Both the position numbers and the translations under genes were made by a program. The notes under the pieces are model-generated. The model saw nothing but the letters and a program-made list of their open reading frames with translations, made no database searches and was not told the origin of the DNA. This document shows, one piece after another, positions 5,875 to 62,611 of a stretch of DNA of 64,000 bases (the stretch's first letter is position 1; each line of letters starts with the position of its first letter). The stretch is from a virus (taxonomy: Duplodnaviria; Caudoviricetes): IMG/VR virus record IMGVR_UViG_3300020148_000032. One strand, written 5' to 3'.

Positions 5875-6387
5875 CTATATTTTTGATTTTAATTCTTCTT
5901 TTCTTGCATTAATTTTTTCAAGGTAAAGAGTGACTTCAACTGATCTGTTCTTCAAAAAGGTATGGTTCTTTTTCAAGCCTTCTAATTCTTTTTCTTGCTC
6001 AGAAATTTTAGCCTCTATTTTTTGTTTTCTTTCACCAGATAATTTTGAAGCTTTATTCTTAAGTGACCCAACAAATGCTTCTTTAAGAGCAACTTTGTCT
6101 TCAACTTTTTGAATTAAAGAAGTGAGGGTTTCATCTTTAAGAAGCGTTTTCGCTCTATCTTTCTCTATTTCTTTATCATTGACATATTTCTTTACTGGGA
6201 ATCGAGAGTACCTTTCACGCTCGTGAAAGAGTGAATCCTCTAGGTCATCTTTCATTGATGCTTCATATGCCACTCTTGCATCTTGAGGTGTTTCATAATG
6301 CTCATCTTTAGATCCATATGGACACCTTCCGAAAAGAGCCTTACAGGCTCCTGGATTACCATTCTTGTCAATGTGAAATTTAGCCAT
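5875..6387 (-). CDS. H-C-C-H tag plus coiled-coil protein
   Basis: MAKFHIDKNGNPGACKALFGRCPYGSKDEHY; K/E-rich heptads after it. Confidence 0.75.
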   Translation of the reverse strand: MAKFHIDKNGNPGACKALFGRCPYGSKDEHYETPQDARVAYEASMKDDLEDSLFHERERYSRFPVKKYVNDKEIEKDRAKTLLKDETLTSLIQKVEDKVALKEAFVGSLKNKASKLSGERKQKIEAKISEQEKELEGLKKNHTFLKNRSVEVTLYLEKINARKEELKSKI

Positions 6388-6756
6388 TATGAACCCCTTT
6401 TAATTTTATTTACCTATCTAAAAAGAATCTAGAAGAGAGACCGCTCCTAGTAATATAAGTAGTTAAGTAGTATTGTTACTTTATAAACTATTTATAAAGA
6501 ATTTAAAAAACAAGCTTATAAATAGTACCATGCTAAGTAAAGTCAAAAACAAGTTTTTAGGCTTTTTAGGTTTTTGTGGAGCAAGAAGATTTGAAAATAC
6601 TAAGTAAGTTTTATTATTATTGGTAGTTTATTTTAGACTGCAGTCTTAGAAAGGAAAAGTCAGAGGTATGTCGTTCATCATAACTGCACTAAAGTTCTGT
6701 TAGAAAGCAGCTTAGAGTTAGTAGCCGTACAATTTAGACACACTCCTACAAAACGG

Positions 6757-7071
6757 CTACTCTTCTATGTGCTCTGAAGGAGCTTCGGGATTTTGGTCCT
6801 CAGGCTTCGGCCAATTTCGTGACATATTCTTCTCTAACTTGAACTTAACTTTGTCAAGTAAATCTTGTGGCTCAAATCCCATTCTCATAGCACCACCAGT
6901 CAATAACAAAATTCCATCAACCCACTCTTCGAGATCCGCAGGATCTTTTTCAATTTCATCTAACTCTTTACGAGCATGAGCAATAATTCCAACATATGTC
7001 TGGTGAGGCCAAGTCTTATCAGCAAATTCTCTCTGCACATAAAGAAAGTTTTCATCAATCGAAAAATTCAT
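6757..7071 (-). CDS. DUF550 dATP/dGTP pyrophosphohydrolase (MazG-like)
   Basis: QREFADKTW, HARKELDEI..DP.DLEEWVD, KNMSRNWP. Confidence 0.82.
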   Translation of the reverse strand: MNFSIDENFLYVQREFADKTWPHQTYVGIIAHARKELDEIEKDPADLEEWVDGILLLTGGAMRMGFEPQDLLDKVKFKLEKNMSRNWPKPEDQNPEAPSEHIEE

Positions 7072-7072
7072 G

Positions 7073-8047
7073 TTAAAGAGCTCCCTTGAAAGAAGAATGG
7101 GTCACTCCGTAAATTGAAAGCTTGTTCTTCTTAGCTTCCAGAAGAGTAGAGTTTTGAGAAGTCTTTACAGCGTTTTGAGCCTTCTCGGAAATTAAAGGAA
7201 CGTCAGACACAATAAAAGCCGCTCGGGAAGAAGTAGGAAAAACAAGGGCGTGGTTAGAGTCAGACATCTTAATTTCCCTCTGCGGAACATAAGGCGTAAA
7301 GAAAAGATCGTAATCAGTCTGAATAAAATGACCTCGTGGAGTCTCTACATAATCAATCATTGTAATAAGAGAATTCACAAATCCATTGATTGTGCGAATA
7401 GACTTTACATTGAGTTCCGGTCGCGGGTTGCGTACAGCCTGAGAAAGGAAGAACCCATACAGACGGACAAGATCAACATAGCGCGCACCCTTGTACTGGT
7501 TAGGGTTCGTCAGTTTCTGAGTGGACTCAAGGTAGAGAGCTTCAATAACAGAGAAGAAAGACTCAACACTAAGGTTATAAAAACCATTCCCCTCTTCATC
7601 AATTCCATGTGCAAAGAAAGTATCAATAACCTCTTCCTGAAAAACACCTGAATCCGTAAAGCGGAGAGACTTTACAGTGTAATTGCGAGAGTTAGGAACC
7701 TTTGACCCACGGAACTTCTTAATAAAGCACAGTGGGAGCCAGTGATGGACCTTAGGAGAATGCGCGCTCTTTGATGATCCAAGGCGAGAGATGAGAGTCA
7801 TTGTCAAGTAGTAAATAACGTCAGACTTCATGTCAAGAGAGAAAGGGTCGCCCTTAATAGTCTGAGATGTAAGGAGCTTCGCCTGCGCTTGCGCGTAATT
7901 TGAAACCTTCTCCCTCAAAGAGGGATCCTTAATCATGAGGGAGTTAAGAGCTTCAAATTTCTGGGGAACTTCAAGAGGCATGTCTGTTAAATTAAACGTG
8001 AGTTCAAGAGCAGTGAGATACCTGTTCATCTCATCGCGTGTTGACAT
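7073..8047 (-). CDS. DUF4238-like protein
   Basis: HHWLPLCFIKKF, VESFFSVIE, SQAVRNP. Confidence 0.55.
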   Translation of the reverse strand: MSTRDEMNRYLTALELTFNLTDMPLEVPQKFEALNSLMIKDPSLREKVSNYAQAQAKLLTSQTIKGDPFSLDMKSDVIYYLTMTLISRLGSSKSAHSPKVHHWLPLCFIKKFRGSKVPNSRNYTVKSLRFTDSGVFQEEVIDTFFAHGIDEEGNGFYNLSVESFFSVIEALYLESTQKLTNPNQYKGARYVDLVRLYGFFLSQAVRNPRPELNVKSIRTINGFVNSLITMIDYVETPRGHFIQTDYDLFFTPYVPQREIKMSDSNHALVFPTSSRAAFIVSDVPLISEKAQNAVKTSQNSTLLEAKKNKLSIYGVTHSSFKGAL

Positions 8048-8755: not shown

Positions 8756-8766
8756 GAGAAATGCTC

Positions 8767-9771: not shown

Positions 9772-9789
9772 AAGAAAAATATCACTTAC

Positions 9790-11271: not shown

Positions 11272-11283
11272 GTAGATTTCACC

Positions 11284-11653: not shown

Positions 11654-14600
11654 TCATAATCGCTTAGTCTTTCTTAAAGACAATAATGATCCCGTTCCTA
11701 TTAATATCAAGATACTAGAGATAAATATCATGTCATAGAGAGAGCTACCAGTCACAGGATGAGCAGTAGGTCTATCAGTTGGAACATTAGTGTTAGTTGG
11801 GTTATCAACTGGAGTCGGATCACTCGGGTTTGTTGGATTCGTTGGGTCAACAGGGTCATTAGGGTCTGTTGGGTCAGTAGGGGTCGAAGTTGTTATGAAA
11901 GGCATAACAGCACCTACTTGATCACACTGATCCTCAATAATTTGTTCTGGGTCAGATGAACATGTCATATTTCCAAGAACTCCAGAAAGAGTAAGTAACG
12001 CACCTGGGTCAGTAGGATAATCAGGTTGAATCTTACCATTAGGGAGAATTTCCTGAATTGGAGTTTCTACACCTGAATACCACCCTTGAACAAGTAAGTT
12101 TTCTTGAGTTGTAGGCAAAGTAGATTGTGTATAAACAGTTGAATCAAAGTTTACTACCATGCTTGTACCTGGGAATAACCCTTCAACTGGAATAGTAACA
12201 TATGTTCTTTCAGAATCTCTAGAAATCACTGGTGTAATTTCAACATCAGAACTATTGAGGTCATACATTAGGTATTTTCTTGGACTAGTTCTATAACTTG
12301 CCCAACCTCCATTAGAATACATTTGTTGGTAGATATCCCATATTGCATGTATTGACATTGAATAAGTAGCGTCAGTTCCAAGAAGATAAAGTTCTCCTTC
12401 TGAAGAGATATAACTTCCAATGACAGAGCTAGCGATAAATCCAAAATTAGAAGCTTTAATATTCTCCCCCGTTTTAGTGTTTGTAATAAACTCCCCTTCT
12501 TTCATAGTGAAATATTCATTACCCTCAAACCAGAAACCATATGACTCCCAGTTATAATAACCATCGACAAAAATTGCCTCTCCTGAAGAGTTAGTTGCAT
12601 AAACGAACCTGTTGTTAGAAGGGTACTCATTAGATGCTTTCAAATCAGTCATTGATGAGAAGTCAGTGTCTTCATACTTCTTTAACAAATTACCATTAAT
12701 GTCAATTTCAAGAAGTTCATTGTTAGCAAGAATGTATCCATTGTCTATCCAGAACCCGAATCTATTTCTGAAAACAAACATATCAGTTATTTTCAAAACT
12801 TTATTCTCATAGGATAACAAAGTAGGGTTATCAAACGAGTAGAAAACGAACATGCTCCCGCCATCATTAGGAGTTACGTCTCCATATTCTACAATTGGAT
12901 TATTTTTTCCTACATATACATAACCATCGTCTGTTACAAAATATGTTTTATTTGAAGTTGGATAGATAGCAGAATAATGCTTTGAATCATCAAGTATTGA
13001 TTTTTGTGGAGTTGAATAACTAATTGAAGTTCCTGTTTCTGTATAAATTGGAGAATTAACTGAACCCCAAGCCCATATTCCTCCATTAACATCAGTAGCA
13101 AGAATTGATGTGTTCCCCCAGTTTATAGCCACAAAAACATTATCAACAGTAATTGGGGTGCCATTATCATCAATGACTAATCCAAACAGTTCATACATTC
13201 CAAGACCAGAACCTCTACCTAATAGGTCTCCACCATAACCGCCAGAGAGACTAAGAGGGTTTGTTCCAGACCAAAGATTATTGTTCAAATCAAGGACAAA
13301 CAAGTCTCCCGCACCGTCACTGTAAACATTTTTACCAGTTAATTGAACGTTATTGTAATCTACAAGTGGAGCAATATTGTCTGAATTGTCAGCATCTTCA
13401 AACATTCCATTGACTGATAAGACCCACACCTTATCGTCAGTGTCTATAGCGTAATACATTCCGTATTCTGCAGAATCAATGATATCCTTGAACTTCATTG
13501 ATGCTGTTGGGGTCCAGATTACTGGTTCTATTTTTGGATCTCCAAGGAAATCATTACCCAAATAATAAAGTCGTCCGTTCTCGTCTAGAAGCAAACTAGT
13601 ATTATTTCCAGAAAGAGTTTCTTTCCACTTTATTTCATTAGTAGTTGTTGCCATAATAGTGTCATTAGTTCCAAATACGATATCTGGAGTATTAATGTTG
13701 ACATTAAGATCACCAGTAAGAGGTTTGTTTCCATTATTCGTAATTGTTACTGACCAATTAGCGGAACAAGAGTCATCGGCTGTAGCAGCAGAACAATTAG
13801 AGTCAATAGTTGATACATCAACACTAGGGTCATAATTAGCGCGCTTAAAACCAACTTGTGTTCCGAATGAATTACCTGGGGTTGCAGTAACCGTGAAAAC
13901 ATTTGAAGGTAATGCTCCATCGATCATATTGATAAATTTTCTATAACTAGAATATGCTACGTCTTCATATAATTGGTTACCCCAACGGTCAAGACCCAAA
14001 GTATCACCACTTGGAGGACTAACAACAATTGTATATTCTCCTTGTGGTACTGATGTTGAATACGATCCATCACTGGCTGTAAGTAAAGTAATATATGGAG
14101 CAATAGAGCTATCTGGAATAGAATCATAAAGTCCAGTATAAATACTTATTGGAACATTAGGTATTTGCGGGTCGCTTGCGCTCCATCTTCCATTAAGATC
14201 ATCATCCCAGTAAACATCACCTGAAATATTATAAGTGTCTGCAATCATATATACAGGTTGTGGTCTTTCTATAGTTCTTGTTCCTCCATTGACTACAGTA
14301 GGTCCAGTCCAAAGGACAAAAGAGTCACCAGGTTGAGAATCTGCACCTTGGCTCATCGTTATTCGTAATTGAGCTGCGGTACTTAAAGTAGAAGAAGCAT
14401 CAGCAGGAACAAATACTCTTAATGCTGTTGCTTGGTCAAGAGTTGGATTTCCAAAGAGTCCAGCATCACTTACTAGATACCAGCTAGAATCTGCAGGGTT
14501 AAAAGTAGGGAGAATGTCAGTCGTAAAATAAAGTTCAGCATTCGTACTACTATTGCTCATATCTAGATATGCTGATGATAGTGTTGGCTTGTTAGTGAAC

Positions 14601-20006: not shown

Positions 20007-21293
20007 TTAATCTTTTACGTAGCCTTCTACAGCTTTTGGACGTTGACCTTTAGGAGCTTCGCGTAATCTTTCAGCGAAACCATAAAGAGCTTTAAATGTC
20101 ATAATGGCGTCAGGCAAAGCGCTGTGCGCGTCCTCATAAGGAATACCATTTGCTTCACTGAAGCTCTCTAATCTGTTATTCTTACCCTCATCAAAAAGAA
20201 TGGTTGAAATAACACGAGTATCACTCCAGGAAACAATAGGTGACATTTCATTCTTGTGGCGTGAAGAAATATTCAAACCAGAAAAGACTTCACTCTTTTG
20301 CCAGAAACCATTGAGGTGTTGTGAGAGGTAGGACTTTTCAAAAGCATCATTATGTGCAACGTTGATGGAATCTGGATCATTAAGGAATTTCCCCACAGTT
20401 TCTTGAACTTTAGGGTCATTGAATTTTCTTTTCCCTACTACGTCTTGAGGTCTAATTTTGTGAACTGCGGTGGCTCCCACTCCGATAACATCTCTTACTT
20501 CAGAATTATTAATGTCAAATCTTTCTTCATATTCTTCAAGAATTTCTCCGCTAGGTGAAACCTTGACGATACCGATCTCAATAATTTCGCCCATGTTAGG
20601 GTCAAGTGATGTTGTTTCAAGGTCAACGAATACTCTATTCTTTTTCCAAGTAGTGGGTCCACCTTGTTGGAATAATGAAACAATGTATTCATCTTTAGTC
20701 ATTCCAGATTCTTCGTTATAATTGTAATAGAGTTCTTCAGCATCTTTACGAGAAATCTCATTCCAAGAAGCTAATTGATTAATGGTAGCGTCTTCCATTT
20801 CTGGGCTAATTTCTTCATTAAAATTCACATTAAGACGCATTGTTGCTCTATAAGCCTTTTGTGCTCTCTTGCTAGCATAAGTTTTTGGAGGGCTTGGATA
20901 TTTATCATCAGCATCAAGTAAACCCATTTCTTTAGCATAGTGTCGCGCGAGCCTCATATTGTGATAATCAACTCTTTGCTTTTCATAGATTTCTCTTAAT
21001 TCATCATGAAGATCATCAATGACTTGAGGGTCAACCATACCTAGAAGAGCAGACACTTTTAATTCTTCAAGTTGGTTCTCACGAGGGTCAGAATCATTTG
21101 CTACAGATGTTTCAAATGCGTCTCTATACTTCTCAATATTGTCAAGAATCGTTTTCGCTTTTTCAGAGTATTTGTTTTGCGCCTCTTCCTTACTAGAGTA
21201 ATGATCTGTTTCTAAATCTCCAAAAGGGCATGTTTTCTTAGCGCGACAAATACCTGGGTTACCCGTTTTAGGGTTAATGTGAAATCTTTTCAT
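20007..21293 (-). CDS. H-C-C-H tag plus DnaQ-like (DEDDh) 3'-5' exonuclease
   Basis: VFVDLETT, VAHNDAFE, AHSALPDA; N-terminus MKRFHINPKTGNPGICRAKKTCPFG..DHY. Confidence 0.88.
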   Translation of the reverse strand: MKRFHINPKTGNPGICRAKKTCPFGDLETDHYSSKEEAQNKYSEKAKTILDNIEKYRDAFETSVANDSDPRENQLEELKVSALLGMVDPQVIDDLHDELREIYEKQRVDYHNMRLARHYAKEMGLLDADDKYPSPPKTYASKRAQKAYRATMRLNVNFNEEISPEMEDATINQLASWNEISRKDAEELYYNYNEESGMTKDEYIVSLFQQGGPTTWKKNRVFVDLETTSLDPNMGEIIEIGIVKVSPSGEILEEYEERFDINNSEVRDVIGVGATAVHKIRPQDVVGKRKFNDPKVQETVGKFLNDPDSINVAHNDAFEKSYLSQHLNGFWQKSEVFSGLNISSRHKNEMSPIVSWSDTRVISTILFDEGKNNRLESFSEANGIPYEDAHSALPDAIMTFKALYGFAERLREAPKGQRPKAVEGYVKD

Positions 21294-21411
21294 GAAAGTT
21301 AAACTCCAATAAGCGAATTTGAATAATATCGTGATTGTGTAATGAATCCTTTTCTAAAGAGAAACTTTAAAAGCTCCACATTTCTGCGGAGCTTTTAAAG
21401 TGACCTGGGAG

Positions 21412-21878: not shown

Positions 21879-22331
21879 TTAGAAAGTCCAAATTTCGATA
21901 GTGATTTCTGGGTAATGCTCGGCCTGAGTATCAATAATATTACGCACCAAGTCCCAATCAAGACCACCAATTCCCGCTCCAATGCGGGGGAGTGCAAGAG
22001 AGACGATTCCATTCTCACGCAAATAGGCGAGAGTGTTTGCAAGAGAGCTGTCAAGCCACTGGTAACTTGCATTGGGACCTGGGAGATCCTGTGTTGCCAT
22101 GTTCATGATAAGGGTTCCGTCAGAAGCCATGACGGGAAGAACCGTACCGGGGGTAAGAAGCCCTTCATCACAAGCCTTCTTGTAAGGTGCAAAGACTTCT
22201 GGATAAAGAGAGCGAAGGGTCTTAGCAATTCCTCTTCCCATTACTCCCTTTACATTGACTCCATGCCCGTAAGCTTCAGCGTGTGAGGTGAAAAGATCAC
22301 CATTCTTCTCAATAATGTTTGTAGGTGACAT
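21879..22331 (-). CDS. Macrodomain (ADP-ribose hydrolase; Poa1p/DarG-like)
   Basis: GDLF, HGVNVKGVMGRGIA, LALPRIGAGIGGLDW. Confidence 0.9.
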   Translation of the reverse strand: MSPTNIIEKNGDLFTSHAEAYGHGVNVKGVMGRGIAKTLRSLYPEVFAPYKKACDEGLLTPGTVLPVMASDGTLIMNMATQDLPGPNASYQWLDSSLANTLAYLRENGIVSLALPRIGAGIGGLDWDLVRNIIDTQAEHYPEITIEIWTF

Positions 22332-22356
22332 GATACTCTCCTTAAAGTATATTTTC

Positions 22357-22385
22357 ATTCTATCATTATGTGAGAAGAATGTCAA
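22357..22385 (-). promoter_or_regulatory. SigA-type promoter
   Basis: TTGACA-N17-TAGAAT. Confidence 0.8.
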
Positions 22386-22503: not shown

Positions 22504-23382
22504 TTAGTGTCGTGCCGTTATAGCCATTGAAACAACTTTAATCATTTCCCCTAATGCTTCGTAAGAGCTACTTTCGAGATCTTCCTGAGCTTTCAAGTTC
22601 TCTAAACGTTCTTTTTCGACCTCTAGATCTTCAATGTCATATGTGGAAATTCTCTCTACTAACTCTTCAGCGTTGCGTGGATTTCCATAATATTTAGGGA
22701 GGGGTTTTAGCTCTTTAGCGTATCCAGCTATTTGAATAAGTGAGTAATATTCTTCAACTACTTCTGACCATCCAGATTCGCTACAGCGATCATATGCTGA
22801 CAAGAAAATAAGATTCTTTGTTTCTTCTGATAGTCCACGATTAGCATTTGGGAATGATTCTTCAAGAACTTTTTGACCATCATTTTGATTCATCTTGGGT
22901 TGCTTTCGGAATGCGTAGAATGCTCCTGTTAAGCCATGACTCTTTGTTTCATCAGTATCTATTGATTCTAAAGAATGAGTTCTTACTGATTCAATAATCT
23001 TTGCATAGGGAATCATCTCTGTTAGCAAGATTTGTGGCGATGAAACTCCTGCTTTGTTAATTGCTTCCCTGTAAATAATCTTGCAGAGTTCATCATCTAC
23101 ATCACTGAGAGAGTATGGGAAAGCTTCTTTAATAATTTGAGGAAAGTTGTCTTCTCTAATATTTTTCTTACCTTCGAGTTTGTCCATAGTTTTATAGAAT
23201 GGGATATCTGTTTCTGTTTTACGCGAAAGGGTGGGTAAACCATGTAATTGCGAGAGGGTTTCTTCGATTGCTTTAATGGCTTCTTCTTTAGAGTCATAAT
23301 GTGTTGAATGTATGGGACATTCTTTCTTTTCAGCATTGCAAACTCTCGGAAACCCGTCAGCTGGTGAGATATGATAGCGCAT
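22504..23382 (-). CDS. H-C-C-H tag plus protein with an internal helical repeat
   Basis: Start MRYHISP after GAGGAG; IIKEAFP...IIY.EA and VLEESFP...LIF.SA repeat. Confidence 0.75.
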   Translation of the reverse strand: MRYHISPADGFPRVCNAEKKECPIHSTHYDSKEEAIKAIEETLSQLHGLPTLSRKTETDIPFYKTMDKLEGKKNIREDNFPQIIKEAFPYSLSDVDDELCKIIYREAINKAGVSSPQILLTEMIPYAKIIESVRTHSLESIDTDETKSHGLTGAFYAFRKQPKMNQNDGQKVLEESFPNANRGLSEETKNLIFLSAYDRCSESGWSEVVEEYYSLIQIAGYAKELKPLPKYYGNPRNAEELVERISTYDIEDLEVEKERLENLKAQEDLESSSYEALGEMIKVVSMAITARH

Positions 23383-23602
23383 AGTGTTCTCCTCTACAAA
23401 AAGCGATAGAAACCTATTAAACTTTAACAAGCCCTTTTAGGTTTCTATTGCCTTTTAATAAAAATCTTTAATTGTGTATTATTTGGAGTAAGATTTTTTG
23501 TTATTTAATGTGTAACTTCATTAACATGTTAAGAACAAGTCTGTTCCCTTAAAGTGTTAATTTTGATGAAGATGACAATTTACATTAAATCAATTTTAAT
23601 GT

Positions 23603-51929: not shown

Positions 51930-52033
51930 AATCCATATCGTTACACATGATAATCTAACAATGCTGAACTAACTTAGTCTCTTGCCGACTACACGTAAAA
52001 GAGTCGTACAATCGCGCGAGATATAGACAAGAT

Positions 52034-52582
52034 TTACAAAGAGAGAAACCTTCTCATCTCTTCTAAATTCTTTGGGGTTAACCCATTCTTACTCTCGCAT
52101 TCAACAGCAAGAACGCGAGGGTCTTGAAACACTTCATGAGTTTTAGAATAATAAGAGAGCAAGTTTCTATAACTCTTTATGTCATCATCACACCAAATTA
52201 CTTTATCTTCAATAGAAAGCGAGTCAAGTAATTTTTTCACTCCCTCAATTTTCCACCAATACGTTAAATTTCTAGAGACCGTCTCTCGAATCCAATCCCA
52301 ATCAGACCCAAAACCAAGTTCTGGAGCAAGTATTGAAACAGCGCGATCCTTCCACGTGGTACACCACATTCCTTGCGCTCTAGATTCAGTTAAAAGCTCT
52401 TTCAATTCTTTTACTAGATCTTTCGAATAACACACATCATAGACTCCAGCAAGCGTTGTACGAATCCACGATTCTTTATCCCAATGAGAGAGATCCTCGT
52501 CTGAATCTGGGAGAGCATTCACAACACCATCAATGTCAAAGAGAATAAAAACTTTACCTTCGCTCAGAGTCATTTTTCTCAC
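52034..52582 (-). CDS. HAD-superfamily protein (RNA-repair HAD type)
   Basis: LFDIDGVVN, WCTTWK, WWK, IWCDDD, GLT. Confidence 0.82.
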   Translation of the reverse strand: MRKMTLSEGKVFILFDIDGVVNALPDSDEDLSHWDKESWIRTTLAGVYDVCYSKDLVKELKELLTESRAQGMWCTTWKDRAVSILAPELGFGSDWDWIRETVSRNLTYWWKIEGVKKLLDSLSIEDKVIWCDDDIKSYRNLLSYYSKTHEVFQDPRVLAVECESKNGLTPKNLEEMRRFLSL

Positions 52583-52629
52583 CTTTCAAAAGTTCCTCAA
52601 AAAGATTATAACGAGAGTTACTCTCTTAC

Positions 52630-52666
52630 TAGCAAACCGCCACCGCATAATGGTGGCGGTTTGCTA
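52630..52666. terminator. Terminator hairpin
   Basis: TAGCAAACCGCCACC ... GGTGGCGGTTTGCTA. Confidence 0.75.
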
Positions 52667-52682
52667 TTCAAACGTTCAAAAC

Positions 52683-53126
52683 CTATCGCTCAATCACAAC
52701 CTCGGTGGACTTGTTGATGATGGGGAACCAACTGAACAGACCAACACGATAGCCAGTTGTTTCGAAAGTGTAAGTCTCCCCAACAGTGATGCTTCCATAA
52801 ATGTCGGCAGAGTTCGTCACGCCCTCGAACCAGTTATCCTTCACTAAGAGAACACCGCAATTGTCAGTGTAAATCCTCATGGAGGACAAACCTCCCGAGT
52901 TACTCGTGCGATCCTTGTCAGTCACCACACAGTTCTCAAAAGTGCGGACGGGGGAAACATATTGTCCGATTGAGAAGAGACCAAAAACAATGACCCCAAC
53001 AAGACCGATAACAAAGAAAACCCTCCCCGAGCTTACATGCGAACTGCGGGACTTATTCCAAGAGGTCTCAACAGTATTGAATTTTCCGCGGCTCATTTGT
53101 CCAGGGAAGAGATATGCCTTACCCAT
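52683..53126 (-). CDS. Phage-type membrane-anchored secreted protein
   Basis: TM; CVVTDKDR, RIYTDNCG, NSADIYG, G.R....S.FP.I. Confidence 0.7.
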   Translation of the reverse strand: MGKAYLFPGQMSRGKFNTVETSWNKSRSSHVSSGRVFFVIGLVGVIVFGLFSIGQYVSPVRTFENCVVTDKDRTSNSGGLSSMRIYTDNCGVLLVKDNWFEGVTNSADIYGSITVGETYTFETTGYRVGLFSWFPIINKSTEVVIER

Positions 53127-53501
53127 TGCGTCACTCCTTAATAGTTGTTAATCACTATTATAATTGAAACGAATAAGGCTTGTCAATATCTCTCTTACTT
53201 TAAAAGCCACCCGTAGGTGACCTCTAAAGAATTAGTGTTAAAACTAGCTCTAGTCATTCAGAATGACGATAATGAAAGCCAACCCAAAGGGCGAAAACTC
53301 CACCATCCACACTCTCAATCTGAAGTCACTCAAGACTCATCAAAACTTTTAATAATCTACTTATAGTTTGACAAGTCCACCTGAAAGTTACCTTAAAAGG
53401 AAACCACAGTTGGCTCGCCACGGGTGAGGTTCTAACAGCATATTAGTACTCCACTGACGCATTATTCGTTCCTCAAATTGAACCCGGGCGCGCCCAGTTA
53501 A

Positions 53502-54092
53502 TCAACCCTCTTCAATTCGTGATCTGACAGAACGAATACGTGCGCGCAAAGCCTCACGGAGCTCGTCAACAAGGTCCAAACTAGCATAACCCCACCCGTC
53601 AGCCATAACAGTAACAGTTTTATCAGACGAGAACACAATTGCACTAAAAGGAACAAGTGCTCCATTAGACAACTTCACGTAATAGTCCTTGAAAATAAGG
53701 TCATCATCGCTAGGGTCGGAACCCGAGTTCTCGGACAACCAACTTAATTCGGCAAAGACTTCGAAAGCACTTTTAGGAGCTTCTTCAATGACATTCGCGC
53801 CACTCTCAATTGTCACGACCGAATCAATCATCACTGGGTCCTCACCAAGGTTAAAAGCTCCGTCCCCATTCAAACCAACCCACGAACCAACAGCCCAACC
53901 AACACCACCCCGACGCTTTAACTCTTCCCACTCTGAATTCGTACCACCCGCAAAAATAAAAACCTGCTTCGCATTCAAACCATCAAAAAGAATCGCGGGA
54001 GTCAGATTGATCCCACACTGGTCAAAAAAAGCAACCCACTGTAAAGAATCATTCGAGCCCTCGCTCTTATACTTCGCAAGATTATCAATCAT
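53502..54092 (-). CDS. Hypothetical protein
   Basis: Long ORF with strongly G/T-skewed coding strand. Confidence 0.6.
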   Translation of the reverse strand: MIDNLAKYKSEGSNDSLQWVAFFDQCGINLTPAILFDGLNAKQVFIFAGGTNSEWEELKRRGGVGWAVGSWVGLNGDGAFNLGEDPVMIDSVVTIESGANVIEEAPKSAFEVFAELSWLSENSGSDPSDDDLIFKDYYVKLSNGALVPFSAIVFSSDKTVTVMADGWGYASLDLVDELREALRARIRSVRSRIEEG

Positions 54093-54974
54093 TATGAAAC
54101 CCACTAACCAATTCTAGAGAATTAATCATCACAAGAACTCTTCGTGAACCCCGCAAGGGTGTCCCCCTTTAAAAAGTTTCTCGCAACAATACTTCTTACC
54201 TATTAAATATTATACATAAAAGAAAGGAGAAGTACAATACTTCTCATCACAAAATTAAAAAGACCAGCCTTTTCAAATTGACGATTACTTGCAATCTAAA
54301 TTGACGACCCAAATACCAATTCCACATTTCAAAAAAAAAGAAAACAACAATGACATTCAGAAACTCCAGAATGTTCACACGCCAGAGGACACGACAAGCA
54401 AGTAAGATCACGCTCTCAAACAAAAACGGATTTTCACTAATTACCTAATGACAGTCCACCCCTGCAAACACTATTCACAAAAACAACCTAAAGGTTCACG
54501 ACAACCTCGGAACCATCAGGAAGGGTTACAACCGCCACCTGCGAATCCTTATCAATCACGCGAACAAGCACATTCACCACAACAAGACCCACTTTCAAAA
54601 AGACTTTGATAAACCTCTGGACTAGCGTCAAGACCCTTCAAAACCCCGCACCGTCAAAAACCGCAGTCTCCCAGGATCACAACTAAAGACGAACAACGCA
54701 TCACGGTTTGACTAAAACACTGTTAGAACAAGAACCACTGTTTCTCATAAACACACTAGGTAATAACAAGCAATGACCCCTGCTAACAGTTTTCAATAAT
54801 CAAAACAAGTGACTCTACAACCAACCAATCCTTAAAGTTTTATCAAACCCGAACCCTCACCGAGAGGTTTGACAACCGCTCCCTCATAAACATTTTTTAA
54901 AAGTGGCGCCACCCAGTGGATAAATGGTAAAGCCCCTCAACACGCTAGACTCTTTGAAAATTAAAAACAGTAGT

Positions 54975-55346
54975 CTAACCCTCGGGGTACAATATAGAGA
55001 ACGCTGACTGCTCGGGTAATTCACCGAACAAGTAAATCGCATCAGCATAAAACGCAAGGACATCCGCGTGACAAGGCAACGGTGCGCAAAAACACTGGAG
55101 TCTTTTACCCTGTAAAGACACCACACTATCCAACAAATCAGAGGTTGCAAGAAAATACTCTTCAAACCTTCGAATCACAACCTTTCGAGATTCAAGTTTC
55201 TCCTCCCGCGACGAACCAGTCAAAGGGTACGGGTTACCCCACTTTGAACCACGACCAACATACACATCAAACGGTGTCTTATGAAACTTATTCACAACAA
55301 GAGTAGGCGTGAAACCAAGACTGTCCACTTTCAACCCGCTTTCCAT
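54975..55346 (-). CDS. DUF4326 domain protein
   Basis: DVYVGRGSKWGNPY, L.GK.L.CFCAPLPCHADVL. Confidence 0.9.
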   Translation of the reverse strand: MESGLKVDSLGFTPTLVVNKFHKTPFDVYVGRGSKWGNPYPLTGSSREEKLESRKVVIRRFEEYFLATSDLLDSVVSLQGKRLQCFCAPLPCHADVLAFYADAIYLFGELPEQSAFSILYPEG

Positions 55347-55468
55347 TCTACAAACCTACCCTCTAGTTAAATGTAGATCAAATCACCATGCAATCAAAAA
55401 CCCTTAAACATTTTACCAACAATCAACATAGCGACAATCATCAAGCACAATCGAGTCAGGAGCGGTAA

Positions 55469-55505
55469 TTCACACAAACTTTCACAAACACTTTCACAAA
55501 CACTT
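55469..55505 (+). repeat. Tandem 12-bp repeat CTTTCACAAACA x2 plus partial copies
   Basis: Exact copies at 55479-55490 and 55491-55502. Confidence 0.6.
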
Positions 55506-55779
55506 ATTCCCTCAGCCTCCCCGCCATCAAAAAATCATTATTCAATTTTTATGCTCGTTCGCTAAAAACAAATAGAATCCAAAATCAACACAAAACCCTA
55601 CGCTCACAACCAACACCACCACACAAACAACACTGAACACGCAGACAACCTTTACCACCACAAAAATAAAAACCCTCACAATTACGCTTACCACACTCAC
55701 ACAAACAACCACCAAACATCAAAAAAAATCAACCCAAAAAATAAAAAAAAGAAAAAAAAAAGAAAACAACCCTGACATG

Positions 55780-56930
55780 GGGAACACTCCAGCGACAGCT
55801 GCCACTAGCCACCCTCCACTTACTCTCACTCTAACCACCAAGTGGTCGCCACCCGATGCCACCACTAACCACCGCTTTTAGACCCCAACGCTTTTAAAGT
55901 CCGCTCGCTTTAACAAGCTTTCACCAACACGACAAGTGCCACCCCATATTCTGAACCCCCAACCCCAATAGGGGCTTTAACCGGCTTTTACAAGCACCGA
56001 GGGTCTCACTCACCCAGGCTCAGGCGGACCGGGGTCCGCCTTCGCCACTGGCCTCCACTATACCAACGAGTAGTTCCAATCACTCTACAAGTCACTAGGT
56101 GTCACGTCCACGCTTGCTCGAGACGTAGCCCAGTGTTCCAATGACACACTCTACACTGTCAGTCACACCTGCGCACTCGAGTGCCCCCTTCGGGGTTCAT
56201 CTCGCACCCAGTTGTTCCTACCAAGTGCTTCACGAGTGTGCCACTTCCACACGACCTACTAGCAGCATGTCCGGACACCATCGCTCCTTGAGAGCGCCTT
56301 CCACTACTCGAGGTACCGTTCCGGACCAGGACTCCCCGCCAAGGGTCCAGCCACCCCAAGTGGGGTGGCTACCCTCGCGGTCCGTCAAGCGCCGGACCAC
56401 CACCTTCACCACTAGGGGTCCATGGCTTCCAACAGCCCTTTACCAAGTTTCCGGAAGGGCCAAGTCTTTACTCCCTTACCGCTCTGCCCAAGCACAAGTC
56501 TACCGTCACCGCCCCAGGGGAGTGCACCGGCGCGAGGCACGCCGGGAGGCGTGCAGAGTGCCAAGGTGCACACGAGCCAGAGGGGTGAGGACCGGTCCAC
56601 AGCGAGCACCGCGAGCGTGTGGAGTTGTCCGGTCCACCACTCGGGCGAGTAAGCCACCAAGGAGTGCCGCGCCACGGGGACGGGGAGCCACAAGTCGTGG
56701 AGCGAGGCGACCGGGTAGCAGCGGTGAACTTTTCAATCAGTTTTAGTAAGTGTTGGAAGTTCACCGGTGCGGACCGGTTGGCGAGCGTAGCGACCTTGGG
56801 GTGGACCGGACCACTAGAGTCACTATGAACGAGTAGCACCAAGTAGTGGTGGTAGGGTGAGTAGTGACTCTATGGCTACGAGCGGAGTGAGTAGTCCCGG
56901 AACGAACGGTAGTGAGGTCCGCGGGTTTGG
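55780..56930. other. GC-rich structured non-coding core; putative replication origin/oriT (or large structured RNA)
   Basis: C-rich to G-rich switch at about 56515; several inverted repeats; AT-rich flanks; next to a replication-relaxation-like gene. Confidence 0.6.
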
Positions 56931-57165
56931 GTTGTTCTTTGATTAATATAGTAGTATTGTGTTTTTGAGGTTTTTGTTTTAGTAAACGTATTTTTTGTTG
57001 GCTATAAGTGGGACTTAGTTTAGTCCGATATTATTTGTGTTGGGAAACTCTGCTGCTACTGGTATTGGTAGTGTGGGTAGTGGTGTGTTGAGTTTAGTTT
57101 GTAGTATATACTATGTATGTAAGACGCCGTTTCACAGTTGAGGTTTTAGCAAGGTTGGTGTTATT

Positions 57166-60100
57166 GTGAATGATAATCCGTTGAGTGGTTCTAGTGACTC
57201 TAGTGATGTTTCTAAGAAGTTTGTGGTACGTGATCCTTTGAATTCTAGAAAGCCGAACCCTTTGAGTTCTCGTGGTATTGAGGGTGATGGTGTTATTGAT
57301 TCTGAACTTGAGAGCAGTGATCCTCATTTTGTGAGTGATGCTTCTAGAGTGAAGAGGGTTGTTAAACCTTTTGCTCCTAAGGGTTTTGGAGTTCTTGGTT
57401 CGGATGATGGTGGAGTAGAATCAGGTGTTGTTCCTGAGGGTGTTGTTCCGGTTAAGCGTCAGGGTCCTGTTTTTAATTCTAAGAAGGTTGAGGATTTTGG
57501 TAGAAGTCGTGTGGCGAGTGAGACTTCTAATAGTGTTGTTCCAGTTGTTGAAAGTGGTGACTCTGGAGTTGTAATTGGTGTAGAGGGTGGCGAACTTGTT
57601 GTGCCTGTTGTGGAGGGTGATGCGGCTCTTGAGTCTGGAATTGGCATTCCTGAACCTGTTATTCATGATTTTGGTGGAGAGCCTGTTGGTGTTTTTGCTC
57701 TTGATTTTAATTCTGTTGGTGGAGATTCTGTTGCTGAGTTCTCTATTGATGATGTTCTTGGAGAGAGTATTGTTCCTGTGGTGAATGATTTAGTGACCCT
57801 TAGTGATGAGGAGGGTCATCATGTGGATGCTCGAGTATTGAGTGTTGGTGTTGATGGTATTGTGAGTGCTCTTGTTGATTTTGATTCTTGGCGTGAGGTA
57901 CCTTTTGGTTCTTTCGATAGTGATTCAAGTGGCGTGGGTTCTGGCGAGGATGATTTTGGCTCTTTTTATTCGAGTGATGGACCTGTTAGTGATGACTTTG
58001 TGGATGAGGATCCTGTTGGAGAGGATGAGCAGTATTCTTGGGATGAGGAATCTGATTATGTGAGTGAGGGTGGTATTCCTGGTAGAGTAACTCCAGAGTT
58101 CGAGAGCGAATCTTTGGTTATTGAACCTGTTGTTAGTGATGTTTTAGATTCTAATAGTGATTCTGCTAGTGTGGTGAACCCTTTTATAGATAGTGATGAT
58201 TCTGAACTTTCGGGTGATGATTTGGGAGAGGGTGAGGTTGCTGGAGTTGTTAATGATGAACTTGAGGGTGATTCGTTTGTTGGTTCTGGTGATGATTCTT
58301 TAGTTGGTAGTGGTGATTCTCTTTCTCGTGAGCCTTTTAATCCTTTTGTGGATGATGATGGAGTCGAGTATTCTATTGATGTGAGCGGTCTTTCTGGAGG
58401 TGACTCTCGTTTTGTTGAGAGAGATGAGGATGATAGTGATGGCGTTTTTGAGGGGTTTGATTCACAGCTTGATCAAGTGTTGAGTGATGATGAGGATGCT
58501 GTTGCGGGTAGAGTTTCGAGTAGTGAGAGTGGTGAGGGTGAGAGCGAAATCATTGTTAGTGATGAACCTGTTGAAGCTTTTAATCCTTTTGTGGGTGATG
58601 ATGAGGGTGATTTTGATGAGTCTGGTGACTCTTTTGTTGAGGAAGTTGTTGATTCTCGTGGGCGTGTGAGTGAGCCTGGTGGGGGAGATAACCCATTTAT
58701 TGGTAGTGATAGTGATGATTTGCCTTATCGTCCTAGGTTGGTTGATGGTGTTCCTGAGCGTGAGTTGTTGCCAGAGGGTGCTTTGAACCTTGTGAATAGG
58801 GTTCGTGAGACTAGTGTGGAGGATCGTGAGCGTATTCAAGCGGCTCGTGAGAAGGGTTCTTTAACGAAGTCTGGAGTTTTTGATAGTGATTTTAGTCCTA
58901 AGAGGGTGACCGAGGTTGTGGTTGATTCTCGTGGTAGGGGAAAAACTCGAGGTAAGGATCCACTTGTGAGGGGTGAACCTGAAGGTGAGGGTTCTGGTGA
59001 AGAGTTTGGGTCACCTTCGGATTGGGTTGGAGCTACCCCTGTGAGGGAGCGCCAGCGTTACCAGTGGACTCGTGGTGATGGTCGTTTGAATGGTAAAGAG
59101 TTAGAGTTTTTTAGGAATTTAGAGTTAAGTAAGTCAGAGTTCCAGCGTCGTGGAGATAGTGCGGTATTGTTGAGGAAGCCTGCTGGTGGTAATGAGAGTG
59201 AGGCTGAGCGTAAGGAGAGGGTGAAGCGCCTTACGAGAGCTATTGGTGGTCGTGAGGCTTTAGAACGTGGTACTCGTTTTCGTTTTGGGTGGAAGGAACG
59301 TGAGGTGTTAGAGTTCCTTGCAATGTTTAGGTATGCTACAGCTAAGCATTTGTCTCGAATGTTTAGTGAGGCAGAGTCTACCATGTATAAGAGGTTGAAG
59401 AAACTTCGTTTGCAGGGTCTTGTTATTGATAAGAAATTGTATGGGGCTCGTCCTATTTGGTTCCTTACTGAGGCTGGTCTTGTGGTAAGTGGGTTTGATT
59501 TACCGAGGGTTATCGAGTCCAAGTTAACTTTTAGTATGTTCCCTCACCAGTTCACGGTGAATAATACTGCGGCTAATTTGTGGGGAGCTAATGTTGATGT
59601 GTTGCATTTAGATAATTTTCCAGAGCGTAATCGTGAGGATGAGAAGGGTAATCCACGGTTTGGTGAGAAACTTGTGAGTGAGTTAGAGATCCAGTCATCG
59701 TTTGGTAAGTTGAAGATGTTTGATAAGAGTGATGTGTATAGACCACAGATTATTGGTCTTATTGAGCGTGAGTTTGCTGCTTGGGAAGAGGCCGGTGGGG
59801 TAGAGTTTGGACCTAGTCCAGAACAAGTGTATGGTAATGAGTACATGTGGGCTTTAATGCCTCCTTATAATGTGAAGTTGGCTTATCACGTTCCTGATTT
59901 AGTGGTAAAGCGTCCTCGTAATAGTGATGGTACTCCTAATAGTATTGCTGTTGAGATTGAGATTAATAATAAACCTAGTGCTAGTTATGAGAAGACTTTA
60001 AGGGCGTACTTGTTGGACTCCAGGTTGTATTCAAAAGTGATTTGGGTGTGTAAGAATGTTGGGCCTGCTCGAAAGCTTGAAAAGATTGGTAAAGATTTGG

Positions 60101-60186
60101 GTATGTTGCAGAGTGGTAAGCTTAATATTGTCCCTGTTCTTACTGAGGATGGTGTGTTTAAGGAGCGTGACTTGTGGACTTTATAA
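57166..60186 (+). CDS. Replication-relaxation-like protein (wHTH + PD-(D/E)xK) with a long acidic disordered N-terminus
   Basis: EVLEFLAMFRYAT..HL......TMYKRLKKL...GLV; HQFTVN; HVPDLVV...AVEIEINNK...Y. Confidence 0.75.
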   Translation: MNDNPLSGSSDSSDVSKKFVVRDPLNSRKPNPLSSRGIEGDGVIDSELESSDPHFVSDASRVKRVVKPFAPKGFGVLGSDDGGVESGVVPEGVVPVKRQGPVFNSKKVEDFGRSRVASETSNSVVPVVESGDSGVVIGVEGGELVVPVVEGDAALESGIGIPEPVIHDFGGEPVGVFALDFNSVGGDSVAEFSIDDVLGESIVPVVNDLVTLSDEEGHHVDARVLSVGVDGIVSALVDFDSWREVPFGSFDSDSSGVGSGEDDFGSFYSSDGPVSDDFVDEDPVGEDEQYSWDEESDYVSEGGIPGRVTPEFESESLVIEPVVSDVLDSNSDSASVVNPFIDSDDSELSGDDLGEGEVAGVVNDELEGDSFVGSGDDSLVGSGDSLSREPFNPFVDDDGVEYSIDVSGLSGGDSRFVERDEDDSDGVFEGFDSQLDQVLSDDEDAVAGRVSSSESGEGESEIIVSDEPVEAFNPFVGDDEGDFDESGDSFVEEVVDSRGRVSEPGGGDNPFIGSDSDDLPYRPRLVDGVPERELLPEGALNLVNRVRETSVEDRERIQAAREKGSLTKSGVFDSDFSPKRVTEVVVDSRGRGKTRGKDPLVRGEPEGEGSGEEFGSPSDWVGATPVRERQRYQWTRGDGRLNGKELEFFRNLELSKSEFQRRGDSAVLLRKPAGGNESEAERKERVKRLTRAIGGREALERGTRFRFGWKEREVLEFLAMFRYATAKHLSRMFSEAESTMYKRLKKLRLQGLVIDKKLYGARPIWFLTEAGLVVSGFDLPRVIESKLTFSMFPHQFTVNNTAANLWGANVDVLHLDNFPERNREDEKGNPRFGEKLVSELEIQSSFGKLKMFDKSDVYRPQIIGLIEREFAAWEEAGGVEFGPSPEQVYGNEYMWALMPPYNVKLAYHVPDLVVKRPRNSDGTPNSIAVEIEINNKPSASYEKTLRAYLLDSRLYSKVIWVCKNVGPARKLEKIGKDLGMLQSGKLNIVPVLTEDGVFKERDLWTL

Positions 60187-60234
60187 CGCGACTTGATGAT
60201 ATTATGTGTAGTGTTTTTATAGGAATAGTGGGTT

Positions 60235-61650
60235 TTGATCGTGGTTTTTGATAATGATTCTGGAGAACTACCTGATGAGACTAGTGATAGTTTCTCTTTA
60301 CCTGATGTTAGTCCAGATGAACTTCCAGAATTTCCAGAATTGCCCGATGCGGAAAATTTAGAGGCTCTTATTCAAGAGGCAATTGAGGATTCTGAAGTTG
60401 AAGATGATTTGTTCTCTAGCAGCCTTGATGATCTTATTAAAATGCGTGATTCTTCAGATAACTCTTATGATGAGAATGATTCTTTTGGTGGAGTTTCCGA
60501 TGAAGTTAAAGAGCCGAGAGAGGTTTTATCGAAGTCTTTTGGTGCTTTTGCTGTTGAGGATGATGAGGATCCGTTACTTGGGTTTAATATTGATAAGGTT
60601 TTAAGTGATGCTATTGACCTTGGAGCTTCTGATGTGCATATTAACCCTAATGATCAAGTGAGTTTTACGATACTTGGTGACATTTATAGACAACCTGGTT
60701 ATGTAGAATTGACTGGTAATATTACTCAGAGGTTACAACAAAAGATTATTTCCCATGTTCTTGAGGCTGATTTTGTTGAAGAATTAGAGTTGGACACGAG
60801 TTATGTAATAAAGACTGGCAAGCATCGTGGTCGCCGAATGCGTTTGAGTGTTGGTAAAAGTTTCGGTGAAATCTTCATGGTTTTCCGTGTGATTGCTGAC
60901 AAGGTTCCTACTCCTGAAGAGTTGGGTATCAGTGGAGAATTACTTAGTTGGACAGAGCTACCTAATGGTTTGATAATGGTGAATGGACCTACTGGTACTG
61001 GTAAGAGTACTACGCTTGCTAGCATGTTAAAGAAGATTCAGTTAGAGCGCGCGCAGAAGGTTATTACTATTGAGCGACCTATTGAGTTCGTGTTTGGTAA
61101 TGAGGGTAAGGCTTTAGTAACTCAGCGTGAGGTTGGTAAGGATGCGCGTAGTTTCTCTAATGCTTTGACTAGTGCGATGCGTCAGGCGCCGGATATTATT
61201 ATGGTGGGTGAGGTTCGTAATCGTGTTGAGGTGAATGAGTTGTTAAGGGCTGCTGAGACGGGCCACCTTGCTATTAGTACTATGCATACGAATAGTGCTC
61301 CAGCGACTATTAATCGTATTAAGTCTTTGTATGAGGGTGATGAGCAATTAAGGATTTTGTCTGGACTTAGTGATGTTGCTCGTGGTTTTGCTAATCAGGT
61401 CTTGTTAAAGACTGTTGATGGTAAGGGTCGCTTTGCTGTTCGTGAGGTTCTTCCAGTAACTCGTGAGATTCAAGATTTGATACTTAAGGGTGATGTGAGA
61501 GGTATTCGTGAGTACCAGATTGACAATAAGATTACTATGGAGCATGAACTTGTGAAGGCTGTTAGAAGCGGTAAAGTTGATGTTCGTACTGCTCGAGGTC
61601 AAAGCGCTTACCCTCATTATTTTGATGAGTTAATGAATTCTCGTTTCTAG
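60235..61650 (+). CDS. PilT/PilU-family secretion/pilus ATPase with an acidic N-terminal extension
   Basis: GASDVHI, GPTGTGKSTT, TIERPIE, QREVG.D, MRQAPDIIMVGEVR, AAETGHL..STMH. Confidence 0.92.
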   Translation: MIVVFDNDSGELPDETSDSFSLPDVSPDELPEFPELPDAENLEALIQEAIEDSEVEDDLFSSSLDDLIKMRDSSDNSYDENDSFGGVSDEVKEPREVLSKSFGAFAVEDDEDPLLGFNIDKVLSDAIDLGASDVHINPNDQVSFTILGDIYRQPGYVELTGNITQRLQQKIISHVLEADFVEELELDTSYVIKTGKHRGRRMRLSVGKSFGEIFMVFRVIADKVPTPEELGISGELLSWTELPNGLIMVNGPTGTGKSTTLASMLKKIQLERAQKVITIERPIEFVFGNEGKALVTQREVGKDARSFSNALTSAMRQAPDIIMVGEVRNRVEVNELLRAAETGHLAISTMHTNSAPATINRIKSLYEGDEQLRILSGLSDVARGFANQVLLKTVDGKGRFAVREVLPVTREIQDLILKGDVRGIREYQIDNKITMEHELVKAVRSGKVDVRTARGQSAYPHYFDELMNSRF

Positions 61651-61834
61651 ACATTGGAGTGTAATGATGAATTTTGATGCTTATTATAATGATTCACCTA
61701 TTTATCGTTGTAAGAAGTGTGGTAAGCGGAATGTTGTTGTCTTTGGTAATCTCCCTACTGACTCGAATTTTAAGTGGAAAGAGTAACATCTTTTTGAAAC
61801 TTTTTAGAAAAATCATCTAAATTGGAGTCTTTTT

Positions 61835-62611
61835 ATGCCTAAATACCACATCTCTATAAATGGAGAGCCTGCAGTTTGTAGAGCTTTTAAGCGACCTTGC
61901 CCAGTAGGTGGAGAACATTTTGATACGATGAAAGATGCTAGAGGTTGGCTGGAATCAAAACTTGAGGCACTTACGATCACGTCATTATCAAAGAATCTTG
62001 ATTCTTATCCATTAGTGATGAAGAATGGAGAGCTTGTGAGAACCGGACTTGTCATGTCTAGTAATTTTATTAAAGAGGTTGCAGAGAAAAGCGATAAGAA
62101 TGAGAAGTGGTCTGGAACTTGGGAAGAACTAGAAAACCTTGTCATGAAGAATATGGATAATTGGTCTCCAGGTACTGGTAGTGTGGATGGGGATGTTCGT
62201 TTAGTTCATGTTCCTTCTGAAGGTTTTTATACTAATATTGTAGAAATAAATGATGAGAACAAGCATCTTGTTGAAACTGTTTGGGAAGCTCGAGTTGAGA
62301 AGGAAGATCCGGTACCGATTAGAGTGATCATGGGGGATGAATATGCTCCTGCTCATCATGTGGATGTAGTTCTTTATAGAGCTGATGTTCTTGCTAAGGA
62401 TGATGATAGATCAAGTATTGCTGAGTGGGAAATTGTGAGTGTTAATTCTAAACCTGAAGAATTTGTACCTATGCACCCTAATACTATGAAAAGGAATGCT
62501 TCTAATTCTGTAGGTGGAACGTTAAGGGAATACTCTAAAGAACAGTGGGAAGAGTCCGAAAAGTATTGGGATTCTCATGTATATGTTCGTCTTAAGAAGC
62601 AAGAATTTTAA
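61835..62611 (+). CDS. H-C-C-H tag plus DUF3228-like domain protein
   Basis: MPKYHISINGEPAVCRAFKRPCPVGGEHF; DVVLY...L, WEIVS...PMHP.TM.RN...GGT...Y....W..S..YW. Confidence 0.7.
   Translation: MPKYHISINGEPAVCRAFKRPCPVGGEHFDTMKDARGWLESKLEALTITSLSKNLDSYPLVMKNGELVRTGLVMSSNFIKEVAEKSDKNEKWSGTWEELENLVMKNMDNWSPGTGSVDGDVRLVHVPSEGFYTNIVEINDENKHLVETVWEARVEKEDPVPIRVIMGDEYAPAHHVDVVLYRADVLAKDDDRSSIAEWEIVSVNSKPEEFVPMHPNTMKRNASNSVGGTLREYSKEQWEESEKYWDSHVYVRLKKQEF

Follow-up and report, generated by a model that had tools for sequence, protein, structure and literature searches.

An N-terminal H-C-C-H module on unrelated proteins of large phage-like elements: a candidate docking tag

Results and discussion

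Four open reading frames (ORFs) in a 64,000-nt stretch of DNA (hereafter the window) from the IMG/VR virus record IMGVR_UViG_3300020148_000032 (Caudoviricetes) begin with a common module of about 45 residues, here called the tag, and carry behind it bodies that show no similarity to one another. With 4010 clusters at 50 % identity, the family defined by the tag is large and is named in no curated library; in very large uncultivated phages, a sizeable proportion of the genes carry it. We propose, with a probability of about 0.55, that it is a portable protein-docking address tag.

Four tagged genes in the window

The motif M-x-[KR]-[YF]-H-I-x3-4-G-x-P-x2-C-x-A-x3-4-C-P-x-G-x2-5-H-[YF]-x-[ST]-x-E-E-A-x2-A-[YF]-E opens the ORFs that start at 6387 (minus strand), 21293 (minus), 23382 (minus) and 61835 (plus). 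Written as a regular expression, it gave four matches in the six frames of the window, which are these four ORFs, and none in 100 shuffles, and a looser H..C..C..H pattern recovered the same four ORFs with 0.03 expected. A family hidden Markov model (HMM), built from 164 members of the tag family, scored the four tags at E = 1e-16 to 2.5e-22 and detected no further copy in the window at E <= 1. An initial annotation of this DNA had located these ORFs and quoted their opening peptides, which ORF translation and the motif search confirmed; its statement that the bodies lack mutual similarity is borne out as well, the best BLASTP comparison being no better than E = 0.14, and so are the DnaQ-type exonuclease and the DUF3228-like protein that it recognised among them.

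Gene 1 (5875..6387, minus, 170 residues) has its tag in residues 1-43 (6259-6387; HMM E = 2.9e-21) and a body without Pfam match. The 428-residue product of gene 2 (20007..21293, minus) combines a tag in residues 1-43 (21165-21293; HMM E = 2.5e-22) with a helical middle part and a C-terminal DEDDh/RNase_T exonuclease domain (residues 221-402, E = 1.1e-12). Gene 3 (22504..23382, minus), with 292 residues counted from the ATG at 23382 and a tag in residues 1-40 (23263-23382; HMM E = 1.4e-16), again has a body without Pfam match; its longest ORF begins at a TTG at 23430, and the ATG at 23382 is the likely true start, because it is preceded by a GAGGAG ribosome-binding site and the tag begins there. 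Gene 4 (61835..62611, plus, 258 residues) carries the tag in residues 1-40 (61835-61954; HMM E = 1.6e-17) and a DUF3228 body in residues 132-250 (E = 3.6e-17).

The four tags are 47-57 % identical in nucleotides, with synonymous sites near saturation, and are old paralogues. Because 15 positions nevertheless stay at 94 % conservation or more in the family, selection must act on the tag protein.

Predicted fold and putative zinc site of the tag

Among the 15 tag positions that are at least 94 % conserved, H5, G10, C15, C22, H30 and A37 are invariant; the H, C, C and H are 100 % invariant in 164 sequences, with ligand spacings of 9-10, 5-6 and 5-8 residues. AlphaFold2 (116 sequences) predicted the tag alone with a local distance difference test score (pLDDT) of 86, with strands (residues 3-6 and 13-16), a knuckle, a bridge where the last His lies and a helix spanning residues 35-48, and within the model of the full-length DUF3228 protein the tag reached a pLDDT of 95-98. 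In these models the tag is an autonomous mini-domain of about 45 residues, composed of a beta-hairpin, a C-P-x-G knuckle, a short strand and an amphipathic acidic helix. One zinc ion would most likely be held by His5, Cys15, Cys22 and His30, a metal suggested by the invariance of these residues together with the confidently predicted fold; H5 and C15/16 share one face of the predicted hairpin.

At its end the tag has a conserved A-[YF]-[ED] (E/D in 95 %), where conservation stops, and the composition of the next 30 residues, with many P, S, T and K and few aromatics, is that of a linker. Its net charge averages 0.04 (standard deviation 1.9), with 60 % of the tags at or below zero: the N-terminal half averages +1.8, R or K following the first Cys in 77 % of the tags, and the helix half averages -1.8. 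Several proteins repeat the second half alone (P-x-G ... F-x-S-x-EEA helix), without metal ligands. Complex prediction with two tag copies and zinc returned a score of 0.00 and no verdict, which is evidence neither for nor against self-association.

Comparison with solved structures by Foldseek gave nothing at E <= 0.001, and the best VIA-align match (Z 4.5) was to Kunitz domains, although a weak or missing fold match to the PDB does not prove a new fold. The Kunitz/BPTI fold is the best structural analogy, since it too is a cross-braced hairpin with a C-terminal helix of about 50 residues (Z 4.5, TM 0.5), but it has three disulfides, is extracellular and shows no sequence similarity to the tag, and the scores are within the range of chance topological likeness. 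A reduced fold like that of RNase H1-N/DUF2188, prompted by the pattern PG-[IV]-x ... [YF]-x-[ST]-x-EEA, is not supported, as it gave only sub-threshold Pfam echoes and was absent from the fold matches; in two relatives the F-x-S-x-EEA strand-helix motif had sub-threshold matches to DUF2188, DUF7336 and SPOR.

A large family with a fixed position and diverse cargo

A profile of the four window N-termini, searched against 1.84 billion representative proteins, retrieved the 4010 clusters at E <= 0.001, of which 453 were found at E <= 1e-10. Nearly all of the best 150 of the 4010 matches begin at residue 1, and all 150 at or close to it. Of 169 carriers, 140 have their first His at residue 5; M1 is present in 99 %, and where the His lies elsewhere it is within a few residues of this position or the start has been miscalled and a Met stands at the right place. 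Once the tag was removed, 168 bodies fell into 132 clusters, 111 of them singletons. Recognisable cargo in 148 carriers comprises RNase_T and YqaJ exonucleases, RNA ligase, HNH, Top1 Zn-ribbon, Zeta toxin/AAA_33 kinases, ADP-ribosyltransferases (ART), GNAT and, in one of the 148, LPD29; a type II methyltransferase, a 2H phosphoesterase, a superfamily 2 (SF2) helicase and a PARP-type domain are also tagged, as is the NAD-dependent DNA ligase (LigA, 754 residues) of the element to which the window belongs. The majority of tagged cargo has no known domain. One body occurs untagged in the window (1998-2630, minus) and tagged in an 89-kb IMG/VR record (G001, 88112-88999; BLASTP E = 1.2e-7), which indicates that tags are gained or lost on a given cargo.

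The curated models of Pfam-A 2025, NCBIfam 20, PHROGs 4 and PADLOC 2 gave no match over the tag at E <= 1 on full proteins, and the four isolated tags matched no family model even at E <= 10. Against PDB chains the tag profile yielded one chance match (E = 1), and the tag was not found described in full-text literature searches or in the comparative surveys of the Aravind laboratory. The initial annotation had held that no named family explains the tag, which agrees with this lack of any curated model or PDB sequence relative. It had also predicted that a profile of the four N-termini would find many, almost exclusively N-terminal matches on diverse cargo of related elements, and this is what was obtained, with only phage-like elements among the carriers where taxa or context are known. 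A known zinc finger occurring at variable positions in chromosomal proteins was looked for, and no such match, position or chromosomal housekeeping context was found. The interpretation offered at that stage is thus partly supported: the distribution holds, and routing of the cargo to a machine is what we still infer. With a net charge of about zero, a position fixed at residue 1 and only viral taxa where these are known, the tag departs from a classical nucleic-acid zinc finger. It is new as a family, and its architectural logic is familiar.

An expansion of Zn-ribbons has been reported in phage G (PMC7824862), likewise a small zinc module multiplied in a phage of about 500 kb. It is not the same domain, given that the tag profile had 0 matches in the whole genome JN638751 at E <= 1 and the same profile gave 6 in the IMG/VR record.

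A shared upstream box and probable cassette-like spread

A TTTAGAAAA-like box (TTAGAWA/TAGAAAR) was found at most 80 nt upstream of six of eight tagged genes, versus 7 of 101 other genes (Fisher p = 2e-5). In the window, promoter-like boxes lie 34 nt before the ATG of gene 1 (TTAGATA, 6415..6421, minus), 64 nt before that of gene 2 (TTAGAAA, 21351..21357, minus) and 31 nt before that of gene 4 (TTAGAAA, 61804..61810, plus). Whatever its partner, the tag would mark a co-regulated set of more than 130 cargo families, mostly of no assigned function, as one functional programme, and it therefore offers a handle on the "dark matter" of huge phages.

In another tag-bearing sequence (L006), two adjacent small tagged genes at 12767 and 13159 (plus) have an identical 17-nt leader and identical first codons, which points to a recent tandem duplication that included the ribosome-binding site and fits a cassette-like duplication of promoter, ribosome-binding site and tag. 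The window also holds a decayed fifth copy, a 40-codon ORF (4884..5003, plus) that keeps M-K-T-Y-H-V-N-P-x-x-G as its first 11 residues and a later H-Y, has lost both Cys and falls below the HMM threshold. It is in frame with a PTH2-like ORF (5043-5684, plus), with TGA, TAG and TAA between them, and the region 4884-5684 looks like a formerly tagged gene with an eroded head.

The tag as a proposed docking address

The combination of a constant head with extremely diverse cargo (132 clusters, 111 singletons) suggests an architecture for docking or trafficking. A docking tag is favoured because the head is strictly N-terminal and predicted to fold independently, is followed by a linker, occurs in many copies on varied cargo behind a shared promoter box, and includes an acidic helix that is repeated alone. 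Since the tag is neutral on average and this conserved helix is repeated without the ligands, its partner is probably a protein rather than a nucleic acid; we also count in favour of docking that some tagged cargo, namely LigA and the Top1 Zn-ribbon protein, has DNA-binding modules of its own. A cassette of promoter box, ribosome-binding site and tag would spread in front of unrelated cargo genes, and through the exposed conserved helix S-K-E-E-A-R-x-A-[YF]-E, which the P/S/T/K-rich linker follows, every cargo would attach to the same receptor. This would bring together in one place a co-regulated set of DNA- and RNA-end-processing, ADP-ribose/NAD and other effector enzymes. We infer the receptor, the binding and the destination alike. 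If correct, the proposal would show how huge phages organise or deliver dozens of enzymes, and the tag would be a compact transplantable tool.

Its logic would be that of dockerins, of microcompartment encapsulation peptides and of the T4 capsid-targeting sequence (CTS). Dockerins are small terminal modules stabilised by metal and encapsulation peptides are amphipathic helices, both carried by enzymes that dock to a scaffold or shell. As with the tag, a small terminal module or helix with a flexible linker is found in these systems, including encapsulins, on dozens of unrelated enzymes per genome, but there is no homology, and neither a cohesin-like nor a shell receptor was identified for the tag, so that the likeness is one of logic only. 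The T4 CTS and the N-terminal propeptides on head and ejection proteins of phiKZ and SPN3US share with the tag the extreme N-terminal position of a portable signal on unrelated proteins. Proteases of phiKZ-like phages cleave at the consensus (S/A/G)-x-E, which the conserved A-[YF]-[ED] end of the tag resembles; no prohead protease gene was found in the DNA examined. The N-terminal signals of T4, phiKZ and SPN3US stand on internal proteins and on the Alt ADP-ribosyltransferase, which are packaged into the head and ejected along with the DNA (PMC5694885, PMC10052503). The T4 CTS differs in being about 10 unstructured, amphipathic residues without metal, whereas the tag is a 45-residue predicted folded H-C-C-H domain, and they have no sequence similarity. 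A constant, delivery-associated head joined to variable effectors is also known from MuF-fused polymorphic effectors of phages and conjugative elements and from their polyvalent proteins (Iyer et al. 2017, PMC5512222; PMC9503650), whose cargo overlaps with that of the tag in ART, Zeta toxin, LPD29, 2H, methyltransferase, helicase and GNAT domains (PMC5512222, PMC9503650). Tagged genes differ in encoding one small effector each instead of many domains in a giant protein, with a 45-residue zinc module as the head, and no MuF, portal or metallopeptidase (zincin) domain was detected in 148 tag carriers.

As to where the cargo would be taken, we tentatively rank first the interior of the procapsid, followed by ejection together with the DNA, although we hold even this destination to be doubtful; two observations speak for it, namely that the cargo overlaps with effectors known or predicted to be packaged in heads (PMC5512222, PMC9503650) and that the tag has the conserved A-[YF]-[ED] end. 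An intracellular replication/repair factory or shell comes second and is a little more doubtful still, on the grounds that a ligase, exonucleases and a helicase are tagged, that the location is a replication/accessory arm and that early-type genes share the box. An intracellular address is at least as compatible as packaging with the NAD-dependent DNA ligase among the cargo and with this replication/accessory-arm location. A bolder version of the proposal, which we regard as possible but not probable, is that huge phages own a genuine protein-sorting code, consisting of a transplantable Zn-knuckle zip code with its own promoter class, a dedicated receptor and a destination built by the phage, inside the capsid or in an intracellular shell or factory. 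The tag would then be the first known sorting domain of bacteriophages that is modular and defined by sequence, and a handle for loading arbitrary cargo.

Several observations weigh against docking. No receptor was found: thymidine kinase and the tagged exonuclease are all that five tag-bearing elements, compared all against all, proved to share. By tblastn of deposited records, the tag is absent from cultured phages, and a folded zinc domain is far more elaborate than known targeting peptides. The tagged genes lie in replication, nucleotide and RNA-repair arms and not beside morphogenesis genes, as judged from nameable neighbours in the window, L002, L006, L018 and G001. The other box-bearing genes include rIIA-, glutaredoxin- and RarA-like genes, which are of early or middle type in model phages. 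Cassette-style evolution, and not function, could have produced the strict N-terminal position, and the tagged core enzymes (NAD-dependent DNA ligase, DnaQ-type and YqaJ exonucleases, helicase) are equally explained by a finger that senses nucleic acids or nicks.

Possible alternative roles of the tag

Such a finger is the main rival, which we consider rather unlikely. The tag would bind a feature of nucleic acids (ends, nicks, modified phage DNA or tRNA) or an ADP-ribose or NAD-derived group and would tether polymer-acting enzymes to a common substrate, acting like the zf-PARP of PARP1 and DNA ligase III or the PBZ of APLF. These too are small N-terminal zinc modules on a ligase, a PARP-type enzyme, kinases and nucleases, and the C-x-[FY]-G of PBZ resembles the C-P-[FLY]-G of the tag; the order of the tag is H-C-C-H, however, and not C-C-H-C or C-C-H-H, its net charge is neutral, and there is neither a Pfam match at E <= 10 nor a fold match. 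Most annotated cargo does act on polymers or ADP-ribose (LigA, RNase_T, YqaJ, SF2 helicase, HNH, type II methyltransferase, RNA ligase, polynucleotide kinase-like AAA_33/Zeta kinases, 2H esterase, PARP/ART), the small-molecule nucleotide enzymes of the window (thymidine kinase, NrdI, the MazG-like enzyme and deoxyribosyltransferase) are untagged, and a macro domain and genes for RNA repair and ADP-ribose surround the tagged genes. Yet phage annotation is biased to nucleic-acid enzymes, and most cargo (the 111 singleton bodies) has no recognisable enzyme of this kind, while several cargoes already have DNA-binding modules. The N-terminal half, with its average charge of +1.8 and an R or K behind the first Cys in 77 % of the tags, is basic and would suit such a ligand, but the whole tag is neutral, 60 % of the tags being at or below zero, and it is the acidic helix that recurs on its own. 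Binding fingers are, moreover, normally not confined to residue 1, and the tag has no sequence or fold match to a known finger for nucleic acids or poly(ADP-ribose). Were the tag such a sensor of nicks, RNA or ADP-ribose, it would represent a new fold for ligand binding and would link phage DNA and RNA repair to NAD-centred conflict enzymes.

The tag might instead act in cis on its own cargo, the cargoes having no destination in common, as a regulatory or stability cap in the form of a timed Lon/Clp-type degron, a zinc or redox switch, a folding or solubility nucleus, or a pro-domain for toxic cargo. The strict N-terminal position suits degrons and pro-domains, the cargo includes toxic proteins (Zeta toxin, ART, HNH), one tag-bearing element encodes a Lon-like protease, and conservation ceases behind the A-[YF]-[ED] (E/D 95 %) that closes the tag. 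We find this explanation distinctly improbable, given that harmless cargo such as LigA is tagged, that one body is known with and without the tag, that a degron would need neither 15 near-invariant positions nor a metal site, and that evidence of cleavage or turnover is lacking. By far the least probable role is that of a translocation signal: the element would be a phage-plasmid whose conjugation- or pilus-type machine, with its PilT-like ATPase, relaxase-like protein and TraG-like coupling protein, transfers the tagged proteins along with the DNA. Co-transfer of this kind had been suggested in the initial annotation and is unsupported. A T2SSE/PilT-like ATPase gene adjoins tagged gene 4, a 1006-residue ORF has a very weak Replic_Relax match (E = 0.0098, below cut-off) and TraG-D_C is present in L002, but the three other tagged genes of the window lie far from these genes, and six other tag contexts (G001, L018, L020, L021, L027 and L028, all fragments) show no T2SSE, type IV secretion system or relaxase families, with one FtsK-like gene in L018. 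Known substrate signals of type IV secretion systems are C-terminal, whereas the tag is N-terminal; the element has T4-type rIIA/rIIB, and its relatives are classed as tailed viruses.

Carrier elements and genomic context

The element represented by the window is about 437 kb in size, its proteins being recorded on a 436,884-bp contig, and assemblies of the same element contain T4-type rIIA and rIIB, DnaG and a TraG-like protein (TraG-D_C in L002). The window is an accessory arm with NrdI, thymidine kinase, a MazG-like enzyme, deoxyribosyltransferase, a GmrSD-C/HNH protein and a PilT-like ATPase, and four further tagged genes were found in 28 kb of flanking DNA that was examined. Around the tagged genes there are untagged RNA-repair and ADP-ribose genes (LigT-like, two HAD_SAK_2, PTH2-like, macro and DUF4326; 2632-5684, 21879-22385, 52034-52582 and 54975-55346). 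The macro-domain gene among them (21879..22385, minus; Macro E = 3e-12) sits between tagged genes 2 and 3, in a context of ADP-ribose processing.

The tag-bearing elements, which are large and unrelated, span 31-65 % G+C content (GC) and have several copies each. There are six tags in the 89-kb IMG/VR record G001, whose large genes are ribonucleotide reductase, DnaB, SbcC and a Lon-like protease, eight within 16 kb of L021, and nine tagged proteins in the uncultivated "Siphoviridae sp. ctHip2"; in L018 three tagged genes, for a 2H esterase, an RNase_T exonuclease and a Zeta/AAA_33 kinase, are adjacent. Tags also occur on a 765-kb scaffold and a 125-kb contig. The former (L027, an ENA scaffold of 764,730 bp) is tag-bearing, orphan-rich and phage-like, and if it is one phage genome it would exceed the largest huge phage, which is reportedly of about 735 kb.

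Where taxa are recorded, the atlas clusters that share the tag fold are 100 % viral, and the carriers are large uncultivated phage-like elements only, where taxa or context are known. Searches of deposited phages and plasmids by tblastn with the 43-residue tag and the full DnaQ protein gave no tag match; a permissive tblastn of deposited records gave three chance matches, the best of which (MT835593) is without a tag by HMM. A DNA search of phages and plasmids with an 8-kb piece of the window returned nothing, and a single scan of genome contigs matched the body of the query and not the tag.

Other features of the window

Rfam and tRNA scans detected no RNA genes in the window. Plasmid-style genes (PilT/T2SSE, and TraG-D_C in L002) coexist in the element with T4-type rIIA and rIIB. 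At 57166-61650 (plus) the 1006-residue ORF with the very weak Replic_Relax match is followed by the PilT/T2SSE-type ATPase, whose N-terminus is extended by a long acidic stretch. A GC-rich island (56000-56800) with 60-63 % GC versus a mean of 37 % is located between this acidic 1006-residue ORF and the DUF4326 gene; it is an island which lies precisely at an extreme inversion of GC skew (from -0.2 to -0.55 before it to +0.45 after it, in the context 52000-58000), and which could be a captured fragment or an origin-like switch. A 1785-residue protein encoded at 11654-17011 (minus) has an N-terminal hydrophobic segment and a match to RCC1-like repeats.

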